Source: a virus (lineage: Duplodnaviria > Caudoviricetes). From it: 64,000 bases of DNA. Of this stretch, positions 38,653-47,252 are shown one piece after another (the stretch's first letter is position 1; the number at the start of each line of letters is the position of its first letter). Location: the IMG/VR virus record IMGVR_UViG_3300022173_000064, positions 624 through 64,623 of that record; one strand, written 5' to 3'. The position numbers and the translations under genes are program-made. The notes under the pieces are model-generated. The model was not told where the DNA came from and made no database searches. It was given only the letters and a program-made list of their open reading frames with translations.

Positions 38653-39156
38653 ATGCCGAGCAATTCCAAGCCGAAACACCCAGGCGGCCGACCGACCGTA
38701 TTCAAAAACGAGTATGTCGATCAGGCCCGCGCACTATGCCAACTCGGCGCGACCGAAACCGATCTGGCCAACTTCTTCAAGGTGACGACCGTCACCATTT
38801 GGCGCTGGCGAACGCGATACCCAGAGTTTTGTAGTGCCCTAAAGGTCGGTCGAGACGTAGCTGACGATCGCGTGGAGAGCAGCCTGTACCACCGGGCGAA
38901 CGGCTACACCTATGATGCGGTTAAGATTTTTCCGCCCTCTGGGAAGCGCGACAAGCCGCTGCTGGTGCCTTACAAAGAGCACGTTCCGCCCGACACCACG
39001 GCGGCGATCTTCTGGCTCAAGAACCGCCGGCGCCTGGAGTGGCGCGAAAAGCCGGACGTGGAGTTCAATGTCTCGGTCAATCTGCTGGACCTGGTGCTGG
39101 CGAGCTATCCCGAGCCGGTGGCACCGAAGCTGATCGAGCACGACAAGGACGAATAA
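38653..39156 (+). CDS. terS: Terminase small subunit
   Basis: GGRPT, HTH region, YPEFCSALKVG, SLYHRANGY, HVPPDTTAAIFWLKNR. Confidence 0.85.
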   Translation: MPSNSKPKHPGGRPTVFKNEYVDQARALCQLGATETDLANFFKVTTVTIWRWRTRYPEFCSALKVGRDVADDRVESSLYHRANGYTYDAVKIFPPSGKRDKPLLVPYKEHVPPDTTAAIFWLKNRRRLEWREKPDVEFNVSVNLLDLVLASYPEPVAPKLIEHDKDE

Positions 39157-39203
39157 TGCCAAGTAACGCTTGGTAACGCGCGTTACCTGTGCTAGGTAAC
39201 GCC

Positions 39204-39446
39204 ATGGACGGAATTTCACAGACCATCAGCCGAGTGCGCCGCGCGATGCCGCGGAACCAGGACGTGATGGCTGTGTGCGACTACGCCGAGCAATCATTGG
39301 CGCGTAGCTCAGCCGGATCAGAGCATCCGCCTTCTAAGCGGCAGGTCGCCGGTTCGAGTCCGGCCGCGCCAGCCAAGCCAAAACTGAGCCGGGCTGAGAT
39401 CCAGCGGAACTATCGCTTGCGGAAGAAGGTCAAAAAAAATGGATAG
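39204..39446 (+). CDS. Hypothetical protein containing an in-frame tRNA gene
   Basis: RRAMPRNQDVMAVCD N-terminus, EIQRNYRLRKK C-terminus; stop overlaps next start. Confidence 0.55.
   Translation: MDGISQTISRVRRAMPRNQDVMAVCDYAEQSLARSSAGSEHPPSKRQVAGSSPAAPAKPKLSRAEIQRNYRLRKKVKKNG
39298..39375 (+). tRNA. tRNA-Arg(UCU)
   Basis: Acceptor TGGCGCG/CGCGCCA, D-arm GCTC/GAGC, anticodon loop CTTCTAA, T-arm GCCGG-TTCGAGT-CCGGC, G73, encoded CCA. Confidence 0.88.
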
Positions 39447-39825
39447 GCCAATTTGGTATGTCTACGGGCTTATCGCTCCTGAGGACAATTGGGTGTTTTA
39501 CGTCGGCATCACCACCAATTTGAAGAAGCGGCTCGGGCAGCACATGACCAATCGAGATTCGGCGGCTTACGAGGCGTGTCGGCAAATATTGCGCCAAGGC
39601 GATATCCCGCGCATGTGCTGCTTCATGGGGACATACGACAAAGATGCGGCCCTGCAATTAGAGCGGCATCTGATCATCGGCATTCCTCAGACTTACAATC
39701 GGACATTCTTCAAGGAGGGTTTTAAGTTCTGGGAGTCCACACGCGATCGCATGTTTGCCAAGTACACCGCCGACGAAATGGTGGAGATGGGCCATGGCCG
39801 CAAGGCCGAGGGGAAACAGCCGTGA
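39439..39825 (+). CDS. GIY-YIG nuclease-family protein
   Basis: YVYGL..FYVGIT.NLKKRLGQH..LE signature. Confidence 0.75.
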   Translation: MDRPIWYVYGLIAPEDNWVFYVGITTNLKKRLGQHMTNRDSAAYEACRQILRQGDIPRMCCFMGTYDKDAALQLERHLIIGIPQTYNRTFFKEGFKFWESTRDRMFAKYTADEMVEMGHGRKAEGKQP

Positions 39826-41941
39826 CACCAACGGTCGAGATGTCATTCAACGCGCTCAAGGTCCGTTTTGGCAGCATGACGCATTTACGGATCGACGTCA
39901 CGAAACTGATCGGTTTTCAGTCTTGGCGGGAGGGGTACGGCAATCGAAAGTTTGTCATTGAGTACACCATGGTCGGCGGCCAGATCGTCTGCGAATACGA
40001 TACCGAGGACAATTGGAAGGCGATCTTGGATGGGCTTGATAAAGCCTTGGATCAGCCTAACCGCGGGGATGGGACGAAGCCGTGAGTGAGATTGATCACC
40101 GGATGGTGGATGATTTTGTGGCTGCCCTGCAGATGCCAGGCGCCGACCGCGAGATTGCCTTGGACGCGATGGCCGAGCATCTTCCGGAATCGATGGCCGC
40201 ATTCACCAAGATTGAGAGAGCGGTAAACATATTGCGGGGCGACGTGATAAAGCGCGCCGCTGAGAAGGAAAAACAATGAGCCGCGCCGAACGCCGCCGCG
40301 CCACGCTCGCCCAGAGCCAGGGCAACGCGCAGATGATTTTCTCGGTGCTGCAGACCGAGCCGACGCCGCGGGACGCGATGGCGACGCTGAGCGCGGTGCA
40401 TGCGGCGATGATCTGGACGCAGGAGCAGAGCGACGAGGCGCGCGCTCGGGCGCTGGCGATCGAGGCTGTGGACGGGATCATTGAGCTGTGGCGCGTCAAC
40501 CGCGACGCGACGGCCGAGACGAAGCAATGAAGCCGAGCGTCACAGTCAGTTTTGACCCCGACATCCAGCCGCAGATCGAATCGCGGCCGGGGATGAAATT
40601 CATCTGTCGGGCATGCTGTGCGCTGAGCCAGCTGCGTCCGGCGGTCGGCGGCGGGATCGTTACGTGGTGCCCGGCCGGCCACCCGCAGATCATGGTGAGC
40701 GCGGACGGCAAGGTCGTGGGGACGAGCGCGTGAGGGAGCTTGCTACATTCGTGATGCTGTCAGTCGCGGCCGTGGTCCTGTTCACCATCCTTGGGATATA
40801 CCTCGGCGACCCGCTGCCGCCTGCAGGAGATTTCTGGCAATGATCCAACTCTCATTTAATCTCAGATCGTTTCCGCGCACGATCGGCCGCAAGGAGTGGC
40901 GCGAGATTTGGCGGTGGAAGCGATGCACCGAGAAGGAACTTGCCATCCATGCCAAGCGGCAGATGGAGGATTTTGTCACTTTCGGATCCACGATGCCAGC
41001 CACCACGCGCGCCGACATCATGAACAAGATGGTAAATCCCCCAATCCTGATGCACGAGAGGTCAATGGATTGGCATTTCCATGGAGGCATGGTGAGAAAA
41101 TGACCGCATCCCCGGCGCGCATCGCGGAGATTCGCCGCCTCGTCGACGACCCTGCGCTGGAGCCGATCAAGGCCCTCGCCCGCATGAGCAACGCAATCAT
41201 GGATATCATCGCGACGTCGCGCCAGGGCGAGCTCGAGGCCGCGCTGATTGCCAAGGGCTTCTCGATCGGCGACATCAAGCGGGATCTGCCGTCGGCGCTG
41301 TGCTTCATCGACGAATTCGGGAAGGTTGGTAAATGATCCGCGCATTCCGCCGCTGGTTCGGGTTAAAGTGCTGGCTGCGCATGTGCGGCGGCAGGATCGG
41401 GTTCACCTGCGACGACGGGATTTGCTGGCGCTGCGCAAGCTGCGGGAAGGAGATGGAGTGATGCCAAAGCCTCGTTTCATCGCGTGGATGGATTGGATAC
41501 TTGATGGCGATGCCGTGAGTTATTCAACTGCTGGATATGGCTCTGCCGAGTCTCCCTCAGGATGTCTGTGGATCGTGCCCGGAACCTACCGCGCATGACC
41601 GAAGGCGCCGAAGCGGGCGGCAGGATTGGCTTCGCGTCCGACGACGAGATATGCTGGCGCTGTGCGCAATGCGGAAGGGATGTGGAATGACGATCAAGAT
41701 GCGATGCACCCGCACAAACGGCCGGACTGCGATCGTTCATGCGAAGGATCTCGGCGCTCGTGTTTTTCGAGGCCAGGAGGTCTACACCACCGCACTCTGG
41801 TTCAAGAACGGGCCGCGTCGCTATTCTCGCGTTGACCGCGCTATGGTGGACAAGCGCGGACTCACCTATCGCCTTGAGATAGACGAGACCGTGCTGGATA
41901 GCATGGGCGCGATTGGCCCATTTGAAATAATGTGGAAATGA
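39822..41941 (+). other. Chain of translationally coupled small hypothetical ORFs (39822-40085, 40082-40279, 40276-40530, 40527-40733, 40840-41103, 41100-41336, 41687-41941)
   Basis: ATGA/GTGA overlaps and SD sites; 40527 carries CxxC..C..H; no recognisable families. Confidence 0.5.
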
Positions 41942-41966
41942 CCGAAGGCGCAGGGAGGGAGATGGA

Positions 41967-42173
41967 ATGAGCACCTTGGGCGATGATCTTCCGAAGGAAA
42001 TGGCACGTATCCGTGACGTGGTGATGCCGGCCTATCAAGAAATAGGCCCGGCGGGTGGGTTTGCGCTCGCATTCATGAGGCGTGATCTGGATGCAGCTGC
42101 ACGCGCGATGGCAGATGGTGATCTCCCCGGCATGATCGCAGCCTACAAGGCGCTGAAAGACTACAAACTGTGA
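41967..42173 (+). CDS. Hypothetical protein
   Basis: GGGAG SD; LPKEMARIRD..Y..IGPAGGFA motif; coupled to terL. Confidence 0.55.
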   Translation: MSTLGDDLPKEMARIRDVVMPAYQEIGPAGGFALAFMRRDLDAAARAMADGDLPGMIAAYKALKDYKL

Positions 42174-43693
42174 CCGTCGAAGGTGCCGAATCCACCGCGG
42201 CCGAGCAGCGGGAAGCAATCCGCCGCGGCGGCCAGCAGATCGCCCGATGGCGCGCATCGCCTCTCGCGTTCGTCCGGGAGGAGTTCAAGGTTGAGCCGGA
42301 CCCGTGGCAGGCGGACGTGCTCGAGCAATTCCCGAGCAATCCGATGGTCGCGCTCACCGCGTGCAAGGGCCCGGGCAAGACCTGCGTGCTGGCGTGGCTC
42401 AACTGGAATTTCCTCGCGACCAGGCCGTTCCCGAAAATGGCGGCCACGTCGATCTCGGGCGACAACCTGCGGGACAACCTATGGGCCGAAATGGCCAAAT
42501 GGCGCGATCGCTCGGCCATGCTCAAGAACGAGTTCGAGTGGACCAAATCCCGCATCTACAATCGAAAGGCCGAGGAGACGTGGTTTCTGTCTGCGCGGAC
42601 ATGGCCACAATCGGCCGATCCGCAGAAGCAGGCGGACACGCTGGCCGGACTGCACGCCGATTACATCATGTTCACGCTGGATGAATCGGGCGGCATCCCC
42701 GACGCGGTGATGGTCGCGGCCGAGGCGGCGCTGTCGTCCTGCATCGAGGGCCATATCCTGCAGGCCGGCAACCCGACCCAGCTGTCCGGGCCGCTCTACC
42801 GCGCCAACCGGTCGCGCAAGGAAAAGGGCGGCCTGTGGCTGGTCATCAACATCACCGGCGATCCGGACGACCCGAAGCGGTCGCCGCGAGTGAGCGTCGA
42901 ATGGGCCCGGAACCAGATCGATACCCACGGCCGCGATAACCCCTGGGTATTGGTGAACGTGTTCGGCCAGTTCCCTCCGAGCTCATTCAACTCGCTGATC
43001 GGCGTCGACGAGGTACGCGAGGCGATGAAGCGGATGTACCGGGAATGGGATTACCGGGATGCGGCCAAGGTGCTCGGGGTCGACGTCGCCCGGTACGGCA
43101 ACGCGGCCAGCGTGGTCTACAAGCGCCAGGGCCTGCAATCCTTCCCGATGCGCAAGGTCCGCGGGGTGAATAGCGTCCAAGGCGCCGGCATCGTGGCGCG
43201 GGCGTGGGACGATTGGGCCGCGGATGCGTGCTTTGTCGACGCTACCGGCGGTTTCGGCGCCGGTTGGATTGACCAATTGATCCAGATCGGCAAAGCGCCG
43301 ATCGGCATCCAGTTTTCTCAGGAAGCGCACGAAAAGACCAAATACGCCAACAAACGCGCGGAAATGGCATTTGACGCGGTGCAGTGGATCAAGCGCGGCG
43401 GCGCGCTGGTCGAAAGCGAGGAATTGCTGCGGACCCTGACCGAGACGACCTACACGTTCCAGAAAGACCGGATCCTGCTCGAGCCGAAGGACGATATCGA
43501 AGCGCGGCTGGGCTTCACCCTGGACGAGTTCGACGGGCTGATCCTGACATTCGCCGAGCCGGTGAGCCCGAAGGCGCGGCAGGTATTCCGGCCGAAGAAC
43601 ATGGCGGATTACGATCCGCTGTCGGATCAGAAGGTGCGGGCCGATGTGGGGCTGGCGAGCGCGATCGATTCGAGTTATGATCCGTTTAAGTGA
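42170..43693 (+). CDS. terL: Terminase large subunit
   Basis: Walker A ACKGPGKT, Walker B MFTLDE, AGNPT coupling motif, nuclease LGVDVARYG and FVDATGGFG. Confidence 0.92.
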   Translation: MTVEGAESTAAEQREAIRRGGQQIARWRASPLAFVREEFKVEPDPWQADVLEQFPSNPMVALTACKGPGKTCVLAWLNWNFLATRPFPKMAATSISGDNLRDNLWAEMAKWRDRSAMLKNEFEWTKSRIYNRKAEETWFLSARTWPQSADPQKQADTLAGLHADYIMFTLDESGGIPDAVMVAAEAALSSCIEGHILQAGNPTQLSGPLYRANRSRKEKGGLWLVINITGDPDDPKRSPRVSVEWARNQIDTHGRDNPWVLVNVFGQFPPSSFNSLIGVDEVREAMKRMYREWDYRDAAKVLGVDVARYGNAASVVYKRQGLQSFPMRKVRGVNSVQGAGIVARAWDDWAADACFVDATGGFGAGWIDQLIQIGKAPIGIQFSQEAHEKTKYANKRAEMAFDAVQWIKRGGALVESEELLRTLTETTYTFQKDRILLEPKDDIEARLGFTLDEFDGLILTFAEPVSPKARQVFRPKNMADYDPLSDQKVRADVGLASAIDSSYDPFK

Positions 43694-44670: not shown

Positions 44671-45426
44671 ATGCCAAGAATCCCGCCCGTAAAGAAGCCG
44701 GTCAATATCTCTGGGCGCAGGTTCGGCGCCCTTGAGGCGATTGATTATCGTGTCACCGACAATAAGTGGCGGTGCCTATGCGATTGTGGGAATGAGGTTT
44801 ATCGACGATTTTGCGATCTCAATTCCAACATTCGGCGCGGCAGTCGAAATAGCTGCTCCAAATGCGGAGTGCGAAAACCAACCCGAGGGTCAACAGGGTG
44901 TAAATTCCCCGGGCGCGGAATTGACCTCGTGGGCCAAGAGTTCGGCCGGCTTACTGTCGTTTCTCTTATCGAGAGAACTCCGAGCGGGTCGCTATGGCTT
45001 TGTGCCTGCTCCTGTGGCAGCGAGGGCCACGTAAAGAGAACGACCAGCAATCTGAAAAATACATCCGAGCCTGGATGTAAGGATTGTGAAACCGAGCGCC
45101 GGGCGGCAGCCAAGGTAACGCACGGGGGGGCTCATAAAGGCGTTACGCGTCTTTACTCAATTTGGAAGGGAATTCTTAAACGGTGTCGCGACATGTCTAA
45201 CCCGCACTACGGCGGAAAGGGCATCAAGGTTTGTAGGGAGTGGGAAGATTTTCCAACTTTCCGCGCTTGGGCTCGTGCGGCTCGTTACGACAACACCCTC
45301 ACAATCGACCGGCTCGACCCTTCCAAAGGATATATGCCGTCAAATTGCGAATGGGTGACACAAGAAGAAAACTCCCGGCGCGTCTATCATCCTCGTATCC
45401 TTGATATGAATGGAATTCGCGCATGA
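44671..45426 (+). CDS. Freestanding HNH homing endonuclease
   Basis: Two GxxFGxL..WxCxCxCG repeats; RLYSIWKG..RC; TIDRLDPSKGYMPSNCEW; lower GC. Confidence 0.8.
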   Translation: MPRIPPVKKPVNISGRRFGALEAIDYRVTDNKWRCLCDCGNEVYRRFCDLNSNIRRGSRNSCSKCGVRKPTRGSTGCKFPGRGIDLVGQEFGRLTVVSLIERTPSGSLWLCACSCGSEGHVKRTTSNLKNTSEPGCKDCETERRAAAKVTHGGAHKGVTRLYSIWKGILKRCRDMSNPHYGGKGIKVCREWEDFPTFRAWARAARYDNTLTIDRLDPSKGYMPSNCEWVTQEENSRRVYHPRILDMNGIRA

Positions 45427-47252
45427 ACGCCCCGGTTCTCGAAAAGGACGTGGCCGCCGCGACGCCGGCTTATATCCAAATGGGCCCGTCGCTTCTGGCG
45501 CAGCAGCCGGTGACGACGCAGACGAAGATCGACGCCAACCCCGATTTCAAGTGGACGACGATATTCTCCCACCTCGAGGCGCGGCTGGCTTCGCTCCGAA
45601 CCTGGCGCTATTCGTGGTGGGCGTATTGGGCCCGGCTCGCAGAGTTTTTCAACCCGCGGCGCTATCACTGGCTCGTTGTGGCCAACCGCATGTCGCGCGG
45701 CAACGCCCTCAACGACGCGATTATTGATTCGACCGGCTTGCTCGCGGTCGAGACCTGCGCCAGCGGCATGTGGACCGGCCTCACCAACCCGGCCCGGCCG
45801 TGGATCAAGATGGAGAGCGGCCTGCCGTGGGTGAAGTTGGACGCCGACGGCAAGGAATGGATCGAGGACACCGAGCAGCGGCTTTACACGGTGCTGGCAC
45901 AGTCCAATTTCTACACCGTGCTCGCCCAGGCGTTTCAGGATCTGACGGTGTTCGGCACGGCGCCGTTCGTGATCTATGAGGATTTTGAGGACGTCATCCG
46001 GCTTTATCTGCCGTGCGCGGGCGAATACTATCTCGGGACCGGGGCGCGGCTGTCGGTCGATACGTTCTATCGGGAATTCACGTTCACGGTCGCCCAGATC
46101 GTGGAGCAGTTCAAAGTCGCGAATTGCCCCGAGCAGGTAACGAACCTGTGGAACACCGGCGGATCGTCGCTGGACCGTGAATTTGTGGTCGCCCACGCGA
46201 TCGAGCCCAACTTCGCGCTCACCGAGCGGGGCACCAACAAGACCGTGCGCGTGGTGCCGGGATCGTTCATTTACCGGGAGGTCTACTGGCTCAAGGGCAT
46301 CCAGACCGCGCGGCCGCTGAGTGTGGCGGGCTTCCGGACCAAGCCGTTCATGGCTCTCCTGTGGTCCAGGGTCTCGAACGACGCCTATGGCCGGTCACCG
46401 TGCATGGATGCGCTGGGCGATTCGAAGCAGGTCCAGCTGGAGACCAGGCGCAAGGCCGAATTCATCGAAAAGCTGGTGCGGCCGCCGATGGGCGCCAATC
46501 CAGAGATGAAAAACGAGCCGTCGTCGATCGTGCCGGGCAACATCACCTATACGAACACCGAGGGCACCAAGAAGGGCTTTTGGCCCCTGTTCGAGGTGGC
46601 GCCGGCCGCTCTGGCCCCGATGGTGCAGGATATAGCCCAGGTCAACGCGCGGATCGAGAAGGCGCTATTTGTCGACGTGTTCATGGCCATTACCCAGATG
46701 CAGGGCGTACAGCCGCGGAACGAGCTCGAATTGACCAAGCGCGACCTCGAGCGCCTGCAGAAGCTGGGCCCGGTCATTACGCTGGTCGAGGAGGAGCTGC
46801 GCCAAGCCCTGACCCGGATTCTGGACATCATGGAGCGGCGCCGGATGCTCAAGCCGAAGCCGGCCGCGCTCAAGGACGTGCCGCTGCGGATCGACTTCCT
46901 GTCCTTGATGCGGATTGCCCAGCGATCGGCCACGGCGGTTTCGATGAAGGACTTCATGGCCACGATGGGCGGCATGTCGAGCGCGGCGAAGGCGGCCGGC
47001 ATCCCCGATCCGCTGCGCAAGGTGAACCTGGACAAGACCGCGGAGAAGTTCGCCGACGTCACCAATTTCCCGTCCGATTGCCTCTACACCGATGATGAGG
47101 TGAAGGAACACGACAAGATCAGGGAGCAGGCCTCGCAGGGTGCGCAGGCTCCGGAGCAGATGACCGCGGCCGTGAACGCTGCCAAGACCCTGAGCGAGAC
47201 GAACACCGGCGGCCAGACGGCGTTATCGCAGCTGCTCGGGACGCCTCAATGA
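45423..47252 (+). CDS. Portal (head-to-tail connector)
   Basis: IIDSTG..ASGMWTGLTNPARPW, QSNFY, YGRSPCMDALGD..LQ, LERLQKLGPV, LAQRS motifs of T7 gp8/BPP-1-type portals. Confidence 0.92.
   Translation: MNAPVLEKDVAAATPAYIQMGPSLLAQQPVTTQTKIDANPDFKWTTIFSHLEARLASLRTWRYSWWAYWARLAEFFNPRRYHWLVVANRMSRGNALNDAIIDSTGLLAVETCASGMWTGLTNPARPWIKMESGLPWVKLDADGKEWIEDTEQRLYTVLAQSNFYTVLAQAFQDLTVFGTAPFVIYEDFEDVIRLYLPCAGEYYLGTGARLSVDTFYREFTFTVAQIVEQFKVANCPEQVTNLWNTGGSSLDREFVVAHAIEPNFALTERGTNKTVRVVPGSFIYREVYWLKGIQTARPLSVAGFRTKPFMALLWSRVSNDAYGRSPCMDALGDSKQVQLETRRKAEFIEKLVRPPMGANPEMKNEPSSIVPGNITYTNTEGTKKGFWPLFEVAPAALAPMVQDIAQVNARIEKALFVDVFMAITQMQGVQPRNELELTKRDLERLQKLGPVITLVEEELRQALTRILDIMERRRMLKPKPAALKDVPLRIDFLSLMRIAQRSATAVSMKDFMATMGGMSSAAKAAGIPDPLRKVNLDKTAEKFADVTNFPSDCLYTDDEVKEHDKIREQASQGAQAPEQMTAAVNAAKTLSETNTGGQTALSQLLGTPQ

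Follow-up and report, generated by a model that had tools for sequence, protein, structure and literature searches.

In-frame nesting of a probably working tRNA gene in the loop of a small three-helix phage protein

Can one stretch of DNA be a tRNA gene and the coding sequence of a protein at the same time, read from the same strand and maintained in both capacities? In the literature that we searched, same-strand overlaps of a structured RNA with a protein gene, both under measurable selection, are very rare. The only bacterial precedent found is the C-terminal extension of SelB: selC, the gene for tRNA-Sec, is nested in the selB ORF of Alphaproteobacteria and was described as the first bacterial ORF-nested tRNA (Mukai, 2021; PMC8124441). 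Annotation pipelines usually delete ORFs that overlap a tRNA or mask the tRNAs, and nested cases would be lost in this way.

The question is raised here by a locus in the packaging module of a tailed phage (Table 1). The window, i.e., the whole stretch of 64,000 nucleotides that was analysed, lacks only the first 623 bases of a virus record of 64,623 bases with a completeness rating of 100%. The original prediction, made by inspection of the DNA, was that a complete tRNA-Arg(UCU) stands in frame as the linker between two protein segments, and ARAGORN, Rfam and the homologues of both flanks now bear this out. We consider it likely that positions 39204-39446 encode a real three-helix protein with a probably working in-frame tRNA in one of its loops, and that the transcript has alternative fates.

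Table 1. Coordinates of the features at the nested tRNA locus of the window.
Feature	Position	Strand	Basis
Terminase small subunit gene terS	38653..39156	+	phrog_309, E 1.1e-44
Four GTAACGC/GCGTTAC heptamers, with 16-bp palindrome at 39172-39187	39163..39202		repeat scan; function putative
Small-protein gene, 80 codons	39204..39446	+	30 homologues to E 4e-24; 117 representative matches; alignment; AlphaFold models
N-terminal coding part: helices 1 and 2, motif RVRRAMPRN.DVM..CD	39204..39296	+	codon model, third-position differences
tRNA-Arg(UCU)	39298..39375	+	78 nt including encoded CCA; ARAGORN, Rfam
C-terminal coding part with stop codon: basic helix KPKLSRAEIQRNYRLRKK	39376..39446	+	codon model; 62% of codon differences synonymous
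GIY-YIG nuclease gene	39439..39825	+	PF01541, E 1.8e-10
terL-like gene, end of the packaging module	42170..43693	+	phrog_5902, E 1.3e-35; similar to the L096 gene (28% identity over 498 aa)

The tRNA and the reading frame around it

ARAGORN, by which the prediction was to be checked, calls a tRNA-Arg with anticodon tct on the + strand at 39298-39375, and this is the sole tRNA in the 64-kb window. Rfam RF00005 matches 39298-39372 over the full model (1-71) with 64.2 bits (E 5.7e-13; gathering score 29). A structure of -35 kcal/mol at this locus may slow down ribosomes. In the Rfam alignment the tRNA ends in U1-A72 and the discriminator G73, followed by the encoded CCA, and its single non-standard pair is U27.C43 at the top of the anticodon stem. 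Both U1-A72 and the mismatch had been noticed from the start as atypical. They are indeed present, but U1-A72 is no mere oddity, the acceptor end being that of the tRNA-Gln nested in relatives (see below). The E. coli identity rules for ArgRS are A20, C35 and U/G36; the window's tRNA has an A directly after G18-G19, together with C35 and U36, and fits these rules. In the nested tRNA-Gln versions, G73, G2-C71, G3-C70 and a 1:72 pair that is weak or open fit the identity elements of E. coli GlnRS, and the G73 of a nested tRNA-Asn fits the E. coli identity nucleotides for Asn. Judged from its nucleotides, segment 39298-39375 is a complete and probably working tRNA gene.

The tRNA begins at base 2 of codon 32 and ends at base 1 of codon 58 in an ORF that stays open for 80 codons from its ATG to a TAG stop at 39444-39446, and the anticodon UCU coincides with exactly one in-frame codon (Ser). 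Openness alone says nothing about this ORF: counting those of at least 40 aa, 55 ORFs overlap the surrounding 4.5-kb region. That number would speak for an annotation artefact, in which the tRNA would lie between genes and the GC-rich DNA would merely happen to leave 80 codons open, as would the presence in databases of spurious tRNA-array ORFs (P0034, P0037, P0044) that match only the tRNA-coded residues. We give the artefact practically no chance, since about 70 proteins, tRNA-less ones included, share the conserved flanks outside the tRNA, and these flanks show codon periodicity and pN well below pS, score as coding in the ORF frame only, and fold at high confidence.

Full-length homologues of the 80-aa product number 30 (58-84 aa), and an exhaustive search among 1.8 billion representatives yielded 117 matches. 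The N-terminal motif recurs in the about 70 retrieved proteins and in 57 fetched DNA loci, 43 of which are distinct. The conserved columns of the alignment are in the flanks and the middle is variable, with the consensus I.QTIGRVRRAMPRN.DVM.ICD.LE in the N part and PAKPKLSRAEIQRNYRLRKK in the C part, where columns R63, A64, I66, Q67, Y70, R71, R73 and K74 are invariant. Family members differ in their basic C tail, of which there are three kinds, namely KPKLSRAEIQRNYRLRKK, KFDKRAYQRE.MRKRR and a CxxC-containing tail. When scored with a codon model that had been trained on long genes of the window (gene mean 0.287 per codon), the N flank reaches +0.22 per codon in the ORF frame, as opposed to -0.54 and -0.32 out of frame; the score of the C flank is +0.31 per codon in the ORF frame and negative in both others. 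The tRNA part carries no coding signal, its score being about -0.1 to -0.2 in all three frames.

AlphaFold predicts for a tRNA-less member of 58 aa (P0024; pLDDT 92) a helix at residues 3-14, a second at 19-33, an 8-residue loop and a third helix at 42-57. The same fold is predicted for the window's 80-aa protein, with residues 38-62 forming a low-pLDDT loop. In these models the position of the tRNA, which encodes residues 32-58, is the loop between helices 2 and 3; the loop-coded peptides SSAGSEHPPSK and QVAGSSPAAPAK would be diagnostic of the full-length product. On conservation, codon usage and modelling, ORF 39204-39446 is a real gene of a predicted three-helix phage protein, and not a chance frame.

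The artefactual proteins mentioned above serve as a control, since the tRNA-coded peptide alone retrieves artefacts and the flanks retrieve a family. Long spurious ORFs over tandem tRNA genes match query residues 27-65 only, often two or three times, whereas the flanks of the ORF studied here are conserved parts that score as coding. Note that P0034, P0037 and P0044, public proteins of 146-222 aa, are translated tandem tRNA genes composed of repeats of AFSSAGSEHLPYKQRVGGSNPS and represent a recognisable class of false proteins.

Neither Pfam nor PHROGs holds a named protein family for the 80-aa product, which matched no translation-related family, and a Foldseek search of the PDB returned nothing below E 3 for the small protein. 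In INPHARED phages terS or the tRNA was matched only separately, with no close relative of the nested arrangement. Scanning 185,579 reference genomes for the family gave one weak 17-residue match and no prophage. Such a stretch of 17 residues (82%, basic C helix only) is found on a contig of a Bathyarchaeia metagenome-assembled genome (L157:3453-3503), probably by chance or as a phage fragment. No close relatives appeared among viral contigs searched with the single ORF; the viral-contig relatives analysed here came from an alignment-based search.

Two kinds of selection on one stretch of DNA

The protein constraint (frame, absence of stops) and the RNA constraint (cloverleaf) can be read separately from one alignment. 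It comprises four distinct tRNA-bearing DNA sequences, L102 being the same contig as L083. Besides the tRNA-Arg(UCU) of the window, these loci carry tRNA-Gln(UUG) of 75 nt in L082 and in L098 (63.9 and 66.4 Rfam bits, respectively) and tRNA-Asn(GUU) of 75 nt in L083 (55.9 bits). All four nested tRNAs enter the ORF at the identical codon phase. The D loop of the window's tRNA exceeds that of the other three by exactly 3 nt, and in L082, L098 and L083 the family frame is the only one of the three frames without stops. The suggestion that homologues would keep both the cloverleaf and the frame is thus upheld in four DNA cases, by their common phase and their frame-keeping lengths.

For three of the tRNA-bearing loci (the window, L082 and L098), comparison of the N and C cores gives pN values of 0.10-0.20 versus pS values of 0.55-0.90. 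Over the four sequences, differences at codon positions 1/2/3 amount to 0.30/0.21/0.63 in the N flank (44% synonymous) and 0.18/0.11/0.41 in the C flank (62% synonymous); in the tRNA part the profile is flat (0.22/0.26/0.33, 18% synonymous). In the cloverleaf, 92.9% of the stem cells of this alignment pair, and in 8 of the 21 pairs both partners have been exchanged; these include the whole anticodon stem (five pairs) and two pairs of the T stem. Pairing of this degree was never reached in 500 shuffles, and slid controls pair at 31-46%. One T-stem pair is C-G in the window and U-A in L082 and L098, which changes the protein from Ala to Val and from Ala to Thr; it is here the peptide that follows the RNA. 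Within the sequences compared, the protein frame and the cloverleaf are shown to be held by selection simultaneously, and the DNA of the window's locus is very probably a tRNA gene and a coding sequence at once.

Two readings would assign only one of these roles to the locus. A real tRNA could have killed the small gene by insertion, the open frame being a leftover. Inactivation would agree with the expected cutting of the message by tRNA processing, with the TAG stop that exact removal of the tRNA leaves in the window, and with the small protein having no known function. Yet the tRNA-bearing lineages are saturated at synonymous sites while both flanks are under purifying selection, the frame has been kept through the 3-nt change in D-loop length, and the stop/start overlap with the next gene has been kept as well. 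We therefore regard insertional inactivation as very unlikely.

Alternatively, the protein gene could be real and the tRNA-shaped segment a relic or a cis-acting RNA structure, such as a translation brake or a stabiliser. This would account for the mismatches of the nested tRNAs, which comprise U27.C43 in the window, two stems in L083, and an unpaired 1:72 in L082 and L098. We consider it unlikely, as all four tRNAs score about twice the Rfam cutoff and compensatory changes occur in every variable stem. Moreover, each of the differing anticodons is canonical and has identity nucleotides to match, three of the four tRNAs have an encoded CCA (L083 is without it), and three near-complete phages, the window included, have no tRNA other than the nested one. 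A gene that is protein-coding and probably gives a working tRNA remains our preferred reading.

Occurrence of the nested tRNA, its neighbours and known counterparts

About 20 family members have an in-frame tRNA in the loop, of which four are confirmed in DNA; about 16 are predicted proteins only, a set that is findable only with an open frame and thus carries an ascertainment bias. These protein-only members are recognised by the tell-tale translation ARSS...GS.P, and their in-frame anticodon codon (L, V, H or P) suggests that they carry further tRNA types. The set includes one member each of the other two tail classes (P0042, P0075). Many family members, close relatives among them, have a short loop and no tRNA. 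Comparison of these genes shows a slot in which the tRNA varies from relative to relative or has been removed without loss of the frame. The acceptor stem of the window's tRNA is identical to those of the nested tRNA-Gln versions, which points to a common backbone in which the anticodon arm and the D loop have been changed.

At roughly 55 other family loci, ARAGORN found no tRNA within a few hundred bases of the gene. No tRNA follows terS at 80 loci that share only terS with the window, and the tRNA is therefore not a feature of the terS family. The near-complete genomes G001 and G002, which hold L082 and L083, contain one tRNA each, at the nested site, and the complete tRNA-less relatives G003 and G004 contain zero. 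Among the 1.8 billion representatives there was no protein with the N domain that breaks off inside a tRNA. On the family tree (45 columns), the presence of the tRNA needs 10 changes versus 12.1 in shuffles, figures that allow no claim of a single origin or of repeated gain. The putative portal protein of the window has no match in the genomes of L082, L083, L085 and L086 (a search without positive control); the cassette is common to the window and these genomes, and close kinship is not evident.

Three minor observations concern possible tRNAs elsewhere. The loop of L099 matches the 5' half of a tRNA at 62%, which is suggestive of a tRNA remnant but too weak to count as one. Near terS relatives, ARAGORN reports an 88-nt 'tRNA-Stop' with anticodon tta (L008:1086-1173, - strand) and a 95-nt tRNA with a two-base anticodon (L051:253-347, + strand), each of which is an odd tRNA or a false call.

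The neighbourhood of the gene is that of DNA packaging. In the window terS ends 48 nt upstream of the ORF start, and the gene order of L082 is the same (terS, then the small ORF). In relatives more generally, the family gene is situated in the packaging module after terS, represented by three PHROG families, or after an HNH nuclease gene, and it precedes terL genes of two families. The sole PHROG match of the window's gene at 42170-43693 bears the label 'unknown function'; its reading as a terminase relies on the identity to the L096 gene, which itself matches phrog_2 terL. About eight small, mostly overlapping-coupled ORFs, their function without assignment, lie between the nuclease and terL-like genes (39822-42173), and the 2.3 kb that they fill are an unusually long insert for a terS-terL module. 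The coupling of the ORF to the next gene, also part of the original prediction, is confirmed by an 8-nt overlap of its TAG stop with the ATG of the GIY-YIG nuclease gene at 39439. Stop/start overlaps with the next gene are found in the window, L082 and L098, and likewise in 7 of 14 distinct long relatives.

The adjacent nuclease raises the possibility that the tRNA belongs to a mobility device, either as an attP site for insertion into a host tRNA gene or as cargo of a GIY-YIG homing nuclease resembling SegB. The GIY-YIG gene does follow the ORF directly, the tRNA is patchily distributed on the family tree, and SegB of T4 is situated among tRNA genes, according to the available part of the source (PMC2330249). 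We nevertheless hold a mobility role to be highly improbable. GIY-YIG genes stand beside the tRNA-less L100, L110 and L120, and no GIY-YIG homologues were found beside the tRNA-bearing L082, L083 and L098; it follows that the nuclease goes with the 3' flank of the small gene and not with the tRNA. Tyrosine and serine recombinases (PF00589, PF00239) are absent from G000 and G001 and sub-threshold only in G002, and a role in mobility would leave the kept frame unexplained. An integration site (attP, tRNA-dependent lysogeny) was rejected for the want of an integrase in G000 and G001. The GIY-YIG genes that follow tRNA-less family genes have the coordinates L100:841-1122, L110:255-527 and L120:362-643 (38-41% identity).

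Among known systems, selB/selC resembles the window's locus in having a whole sense-strand tRNA inside a protein ORF whose stop overlaps the next start, and it resembles the family in that the tRNA length is mostly a multiple of 3 and that relatives have remnant or lost tRNAs. The two differ in three respects. In selB the tRNA codes for a C-terminal extension with nothing conserved after it, whereas in the window it is placed between two conserved parts that are predicted to fold. The nested tRNA of selB is always tRNA-Sec, functionally tied to SelB; the phage family offers a real gene and a conserved frame, but its tRNAs (Arg, Gln, Asn and others) have no evident functional tie to the protein. 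Lastly, selB/selC is found in a cellular genome, and the family described here in a phage packaging module. What is new in comparison with selC/selB is the position of the tRNA between conserved protein parts, its varying cargo and its location in phage packaging modules; the literature searched contained no report of an in-frame tRNA inside a phage protein gene.

Partial counterparts are known from other systems. The mitochondrial tRNA-Lys inside cox1 of Armadillidium vulgare (cited in PMC8124441) is, as far as that citation describes it, likewise an entire tRNA in direct orientation within a coding region, but in an animal mitochondrion under extreme compaction and as a reduced 60-nt tRNA. 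In mycobacteriophage Fionnbharth (subcluster K4), tRNA-Lys overlaps the 3' end of gene 37 (PMC10865867). There too a phage tRNA and a conserved phage ORF, tRNA-less in other clusters, have DNA in common; unlike in the window, the overlap is restricted to the 3' end and the tRNA serves tRNA-dependent lysogeny together with an integrase. The SegB region of T4 is similar to the window insofar as a phage tRNA gene adjoins a free-standing GIY-YIG nuclease gene, but the T4 tRNAs lie outside ORFs in the part of the source available (PMC2330249), and the nuclease of the window's type accompanies the small gene regardless of the tRNA.

Proposed expression of the locus and possible use of the tRNA

Of the nine copies of GTAACGC in the 64-kb window, four lie within the 40 bp directly before the ATG of the ORF, and a promoter-like pair overlaps the repeats (TTGGTA at 39170-39175, CTAGGT at 39192-39197). 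At 13 distinct loci of relatives, TTGAC is found 34-37 nt before the ATG and an xAxGGT hexamer at about -13 to -8, places that match those of the window's TTGGTA and CTAGGT. A stricter sigma-70 scan did not call the promoter-like pair before 39204. There is no Shine-Dalgarno sequence before the ATG, so a leaderless message fits. The arrangement could represent a weak sigma-70-type promoter with an operator in its spacer and with the transcript starting at or near the ATG. The single long terS-terL late mRNA that had been assumed at first is thus not required, as a promoter-like site is present at the ATG of the ORF itself and the terL-like gene begins 2.7 kb further on (42170).

The repeat word varies with the tail class of the protein: genes of proteins with the KPKL tail have GTAACGC, those with the KFDKRAYQRE tail have TCTAAC/GTTAGA, and those with CxxC tails have GTAACGTTAC-like words. 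Because of this co-variation and of the basic helix, we infer that the small protein binds the GTAACGC-type repeats. It would probably contact DNA through the basic helix, perhaps at the repeats before its own gene, and the repeats look like an operator that co-evolves with its binding protein, or like a packaging-site element next to terS. As in the window, the ATG of the family gene in L082-L133 is immediately preceded by short repeats, three or four in number and both direct and inverted.

RNase P cuts the 5' end of tRNAs, and it is plausible that tRNA processing would cut the mRNA and thus link tRNA supply to mRNA control, as the original prediction had it. In the mechanism that we propose, transcription from the gene's own promoter-like site, which overlaps the GTAACGC repeats, would give a leaderless mRNA. 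Ribosomes reading through this transcript would produce the 80-aa protein with a floppy 26-residue loop and pass on to the coupled GIY-YIG nuclease gene. If the transcript folded first, RNase P and 3' processing enzymes would release the phage's only tRNA; the message would then be destroyed, its 5' piece becoming a non-stop mRNA and its 3' piece being without a start. Protein and tRNA would therefore be alternatives for each transcript, since processing of the tRNA destroys the message. Another candidate was the tRNA as an intron: its exact excision and the joining of the ends would be in frame but yield the TAG stop in the window, and we know of no ligation pathway for excised-and-rejoined bacterial mRNAs. 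For selB/selC, tRNA processing and translation have been proposed as alternative fates (Mukai, 2021; PMC8124441), the same logic as suggested here and likewise on bioinformatic grounds only. The proposed message-or-tRNA switch would constitute a built-in either/or fate of a transcript that is directly testable, and it bears on why single-tRNA phages carry that tRNA and how it is expressed.

As to the use of the tRNA, the AGA codons that it reads had been reported in the endonuclease and spike genes. The spike gene does contain three, but the GIY-YIG nuclease gene has none. AGA is rare in the window (32 of 17,266 codons, spread over 26 genes) and is missing from the GIY-YIG gene, so the codon argument fits only in part. 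The tRNA might supply rare AGA/AGG codons, or else replace a host tRNA hit by defence nucleases, and both uses would agree with a cargo that varies among relatives (Gln UUG, Asn GUU, further types). That phages make up for host tRNAs cleaved by defence nucleases is a theme in the available portion of the phage tRNA literature.

A more far-reaching idea, which we put forward as speculative and would rather doubt at present, is that the locus is a portable, self-regulated cassette. It would consist of a leaderless promoter with clade-specific repeats, a repressor protein that binds these repeats, and a loop that serves as a docking slot for swappable tRNAs. Each transcript would become repressor mRNA or tRNA, the protein would set the tRNA dose, and the cargo would follow host codon supply or anticodon-nuclease defences.

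We also would like to point out a second inverted GTAACGC pair in the window, at 45115-45146, about 280 nt before the 609-aa ORF at 45423-47252 (the putative portal gene), which may be another site for the same binding factor.
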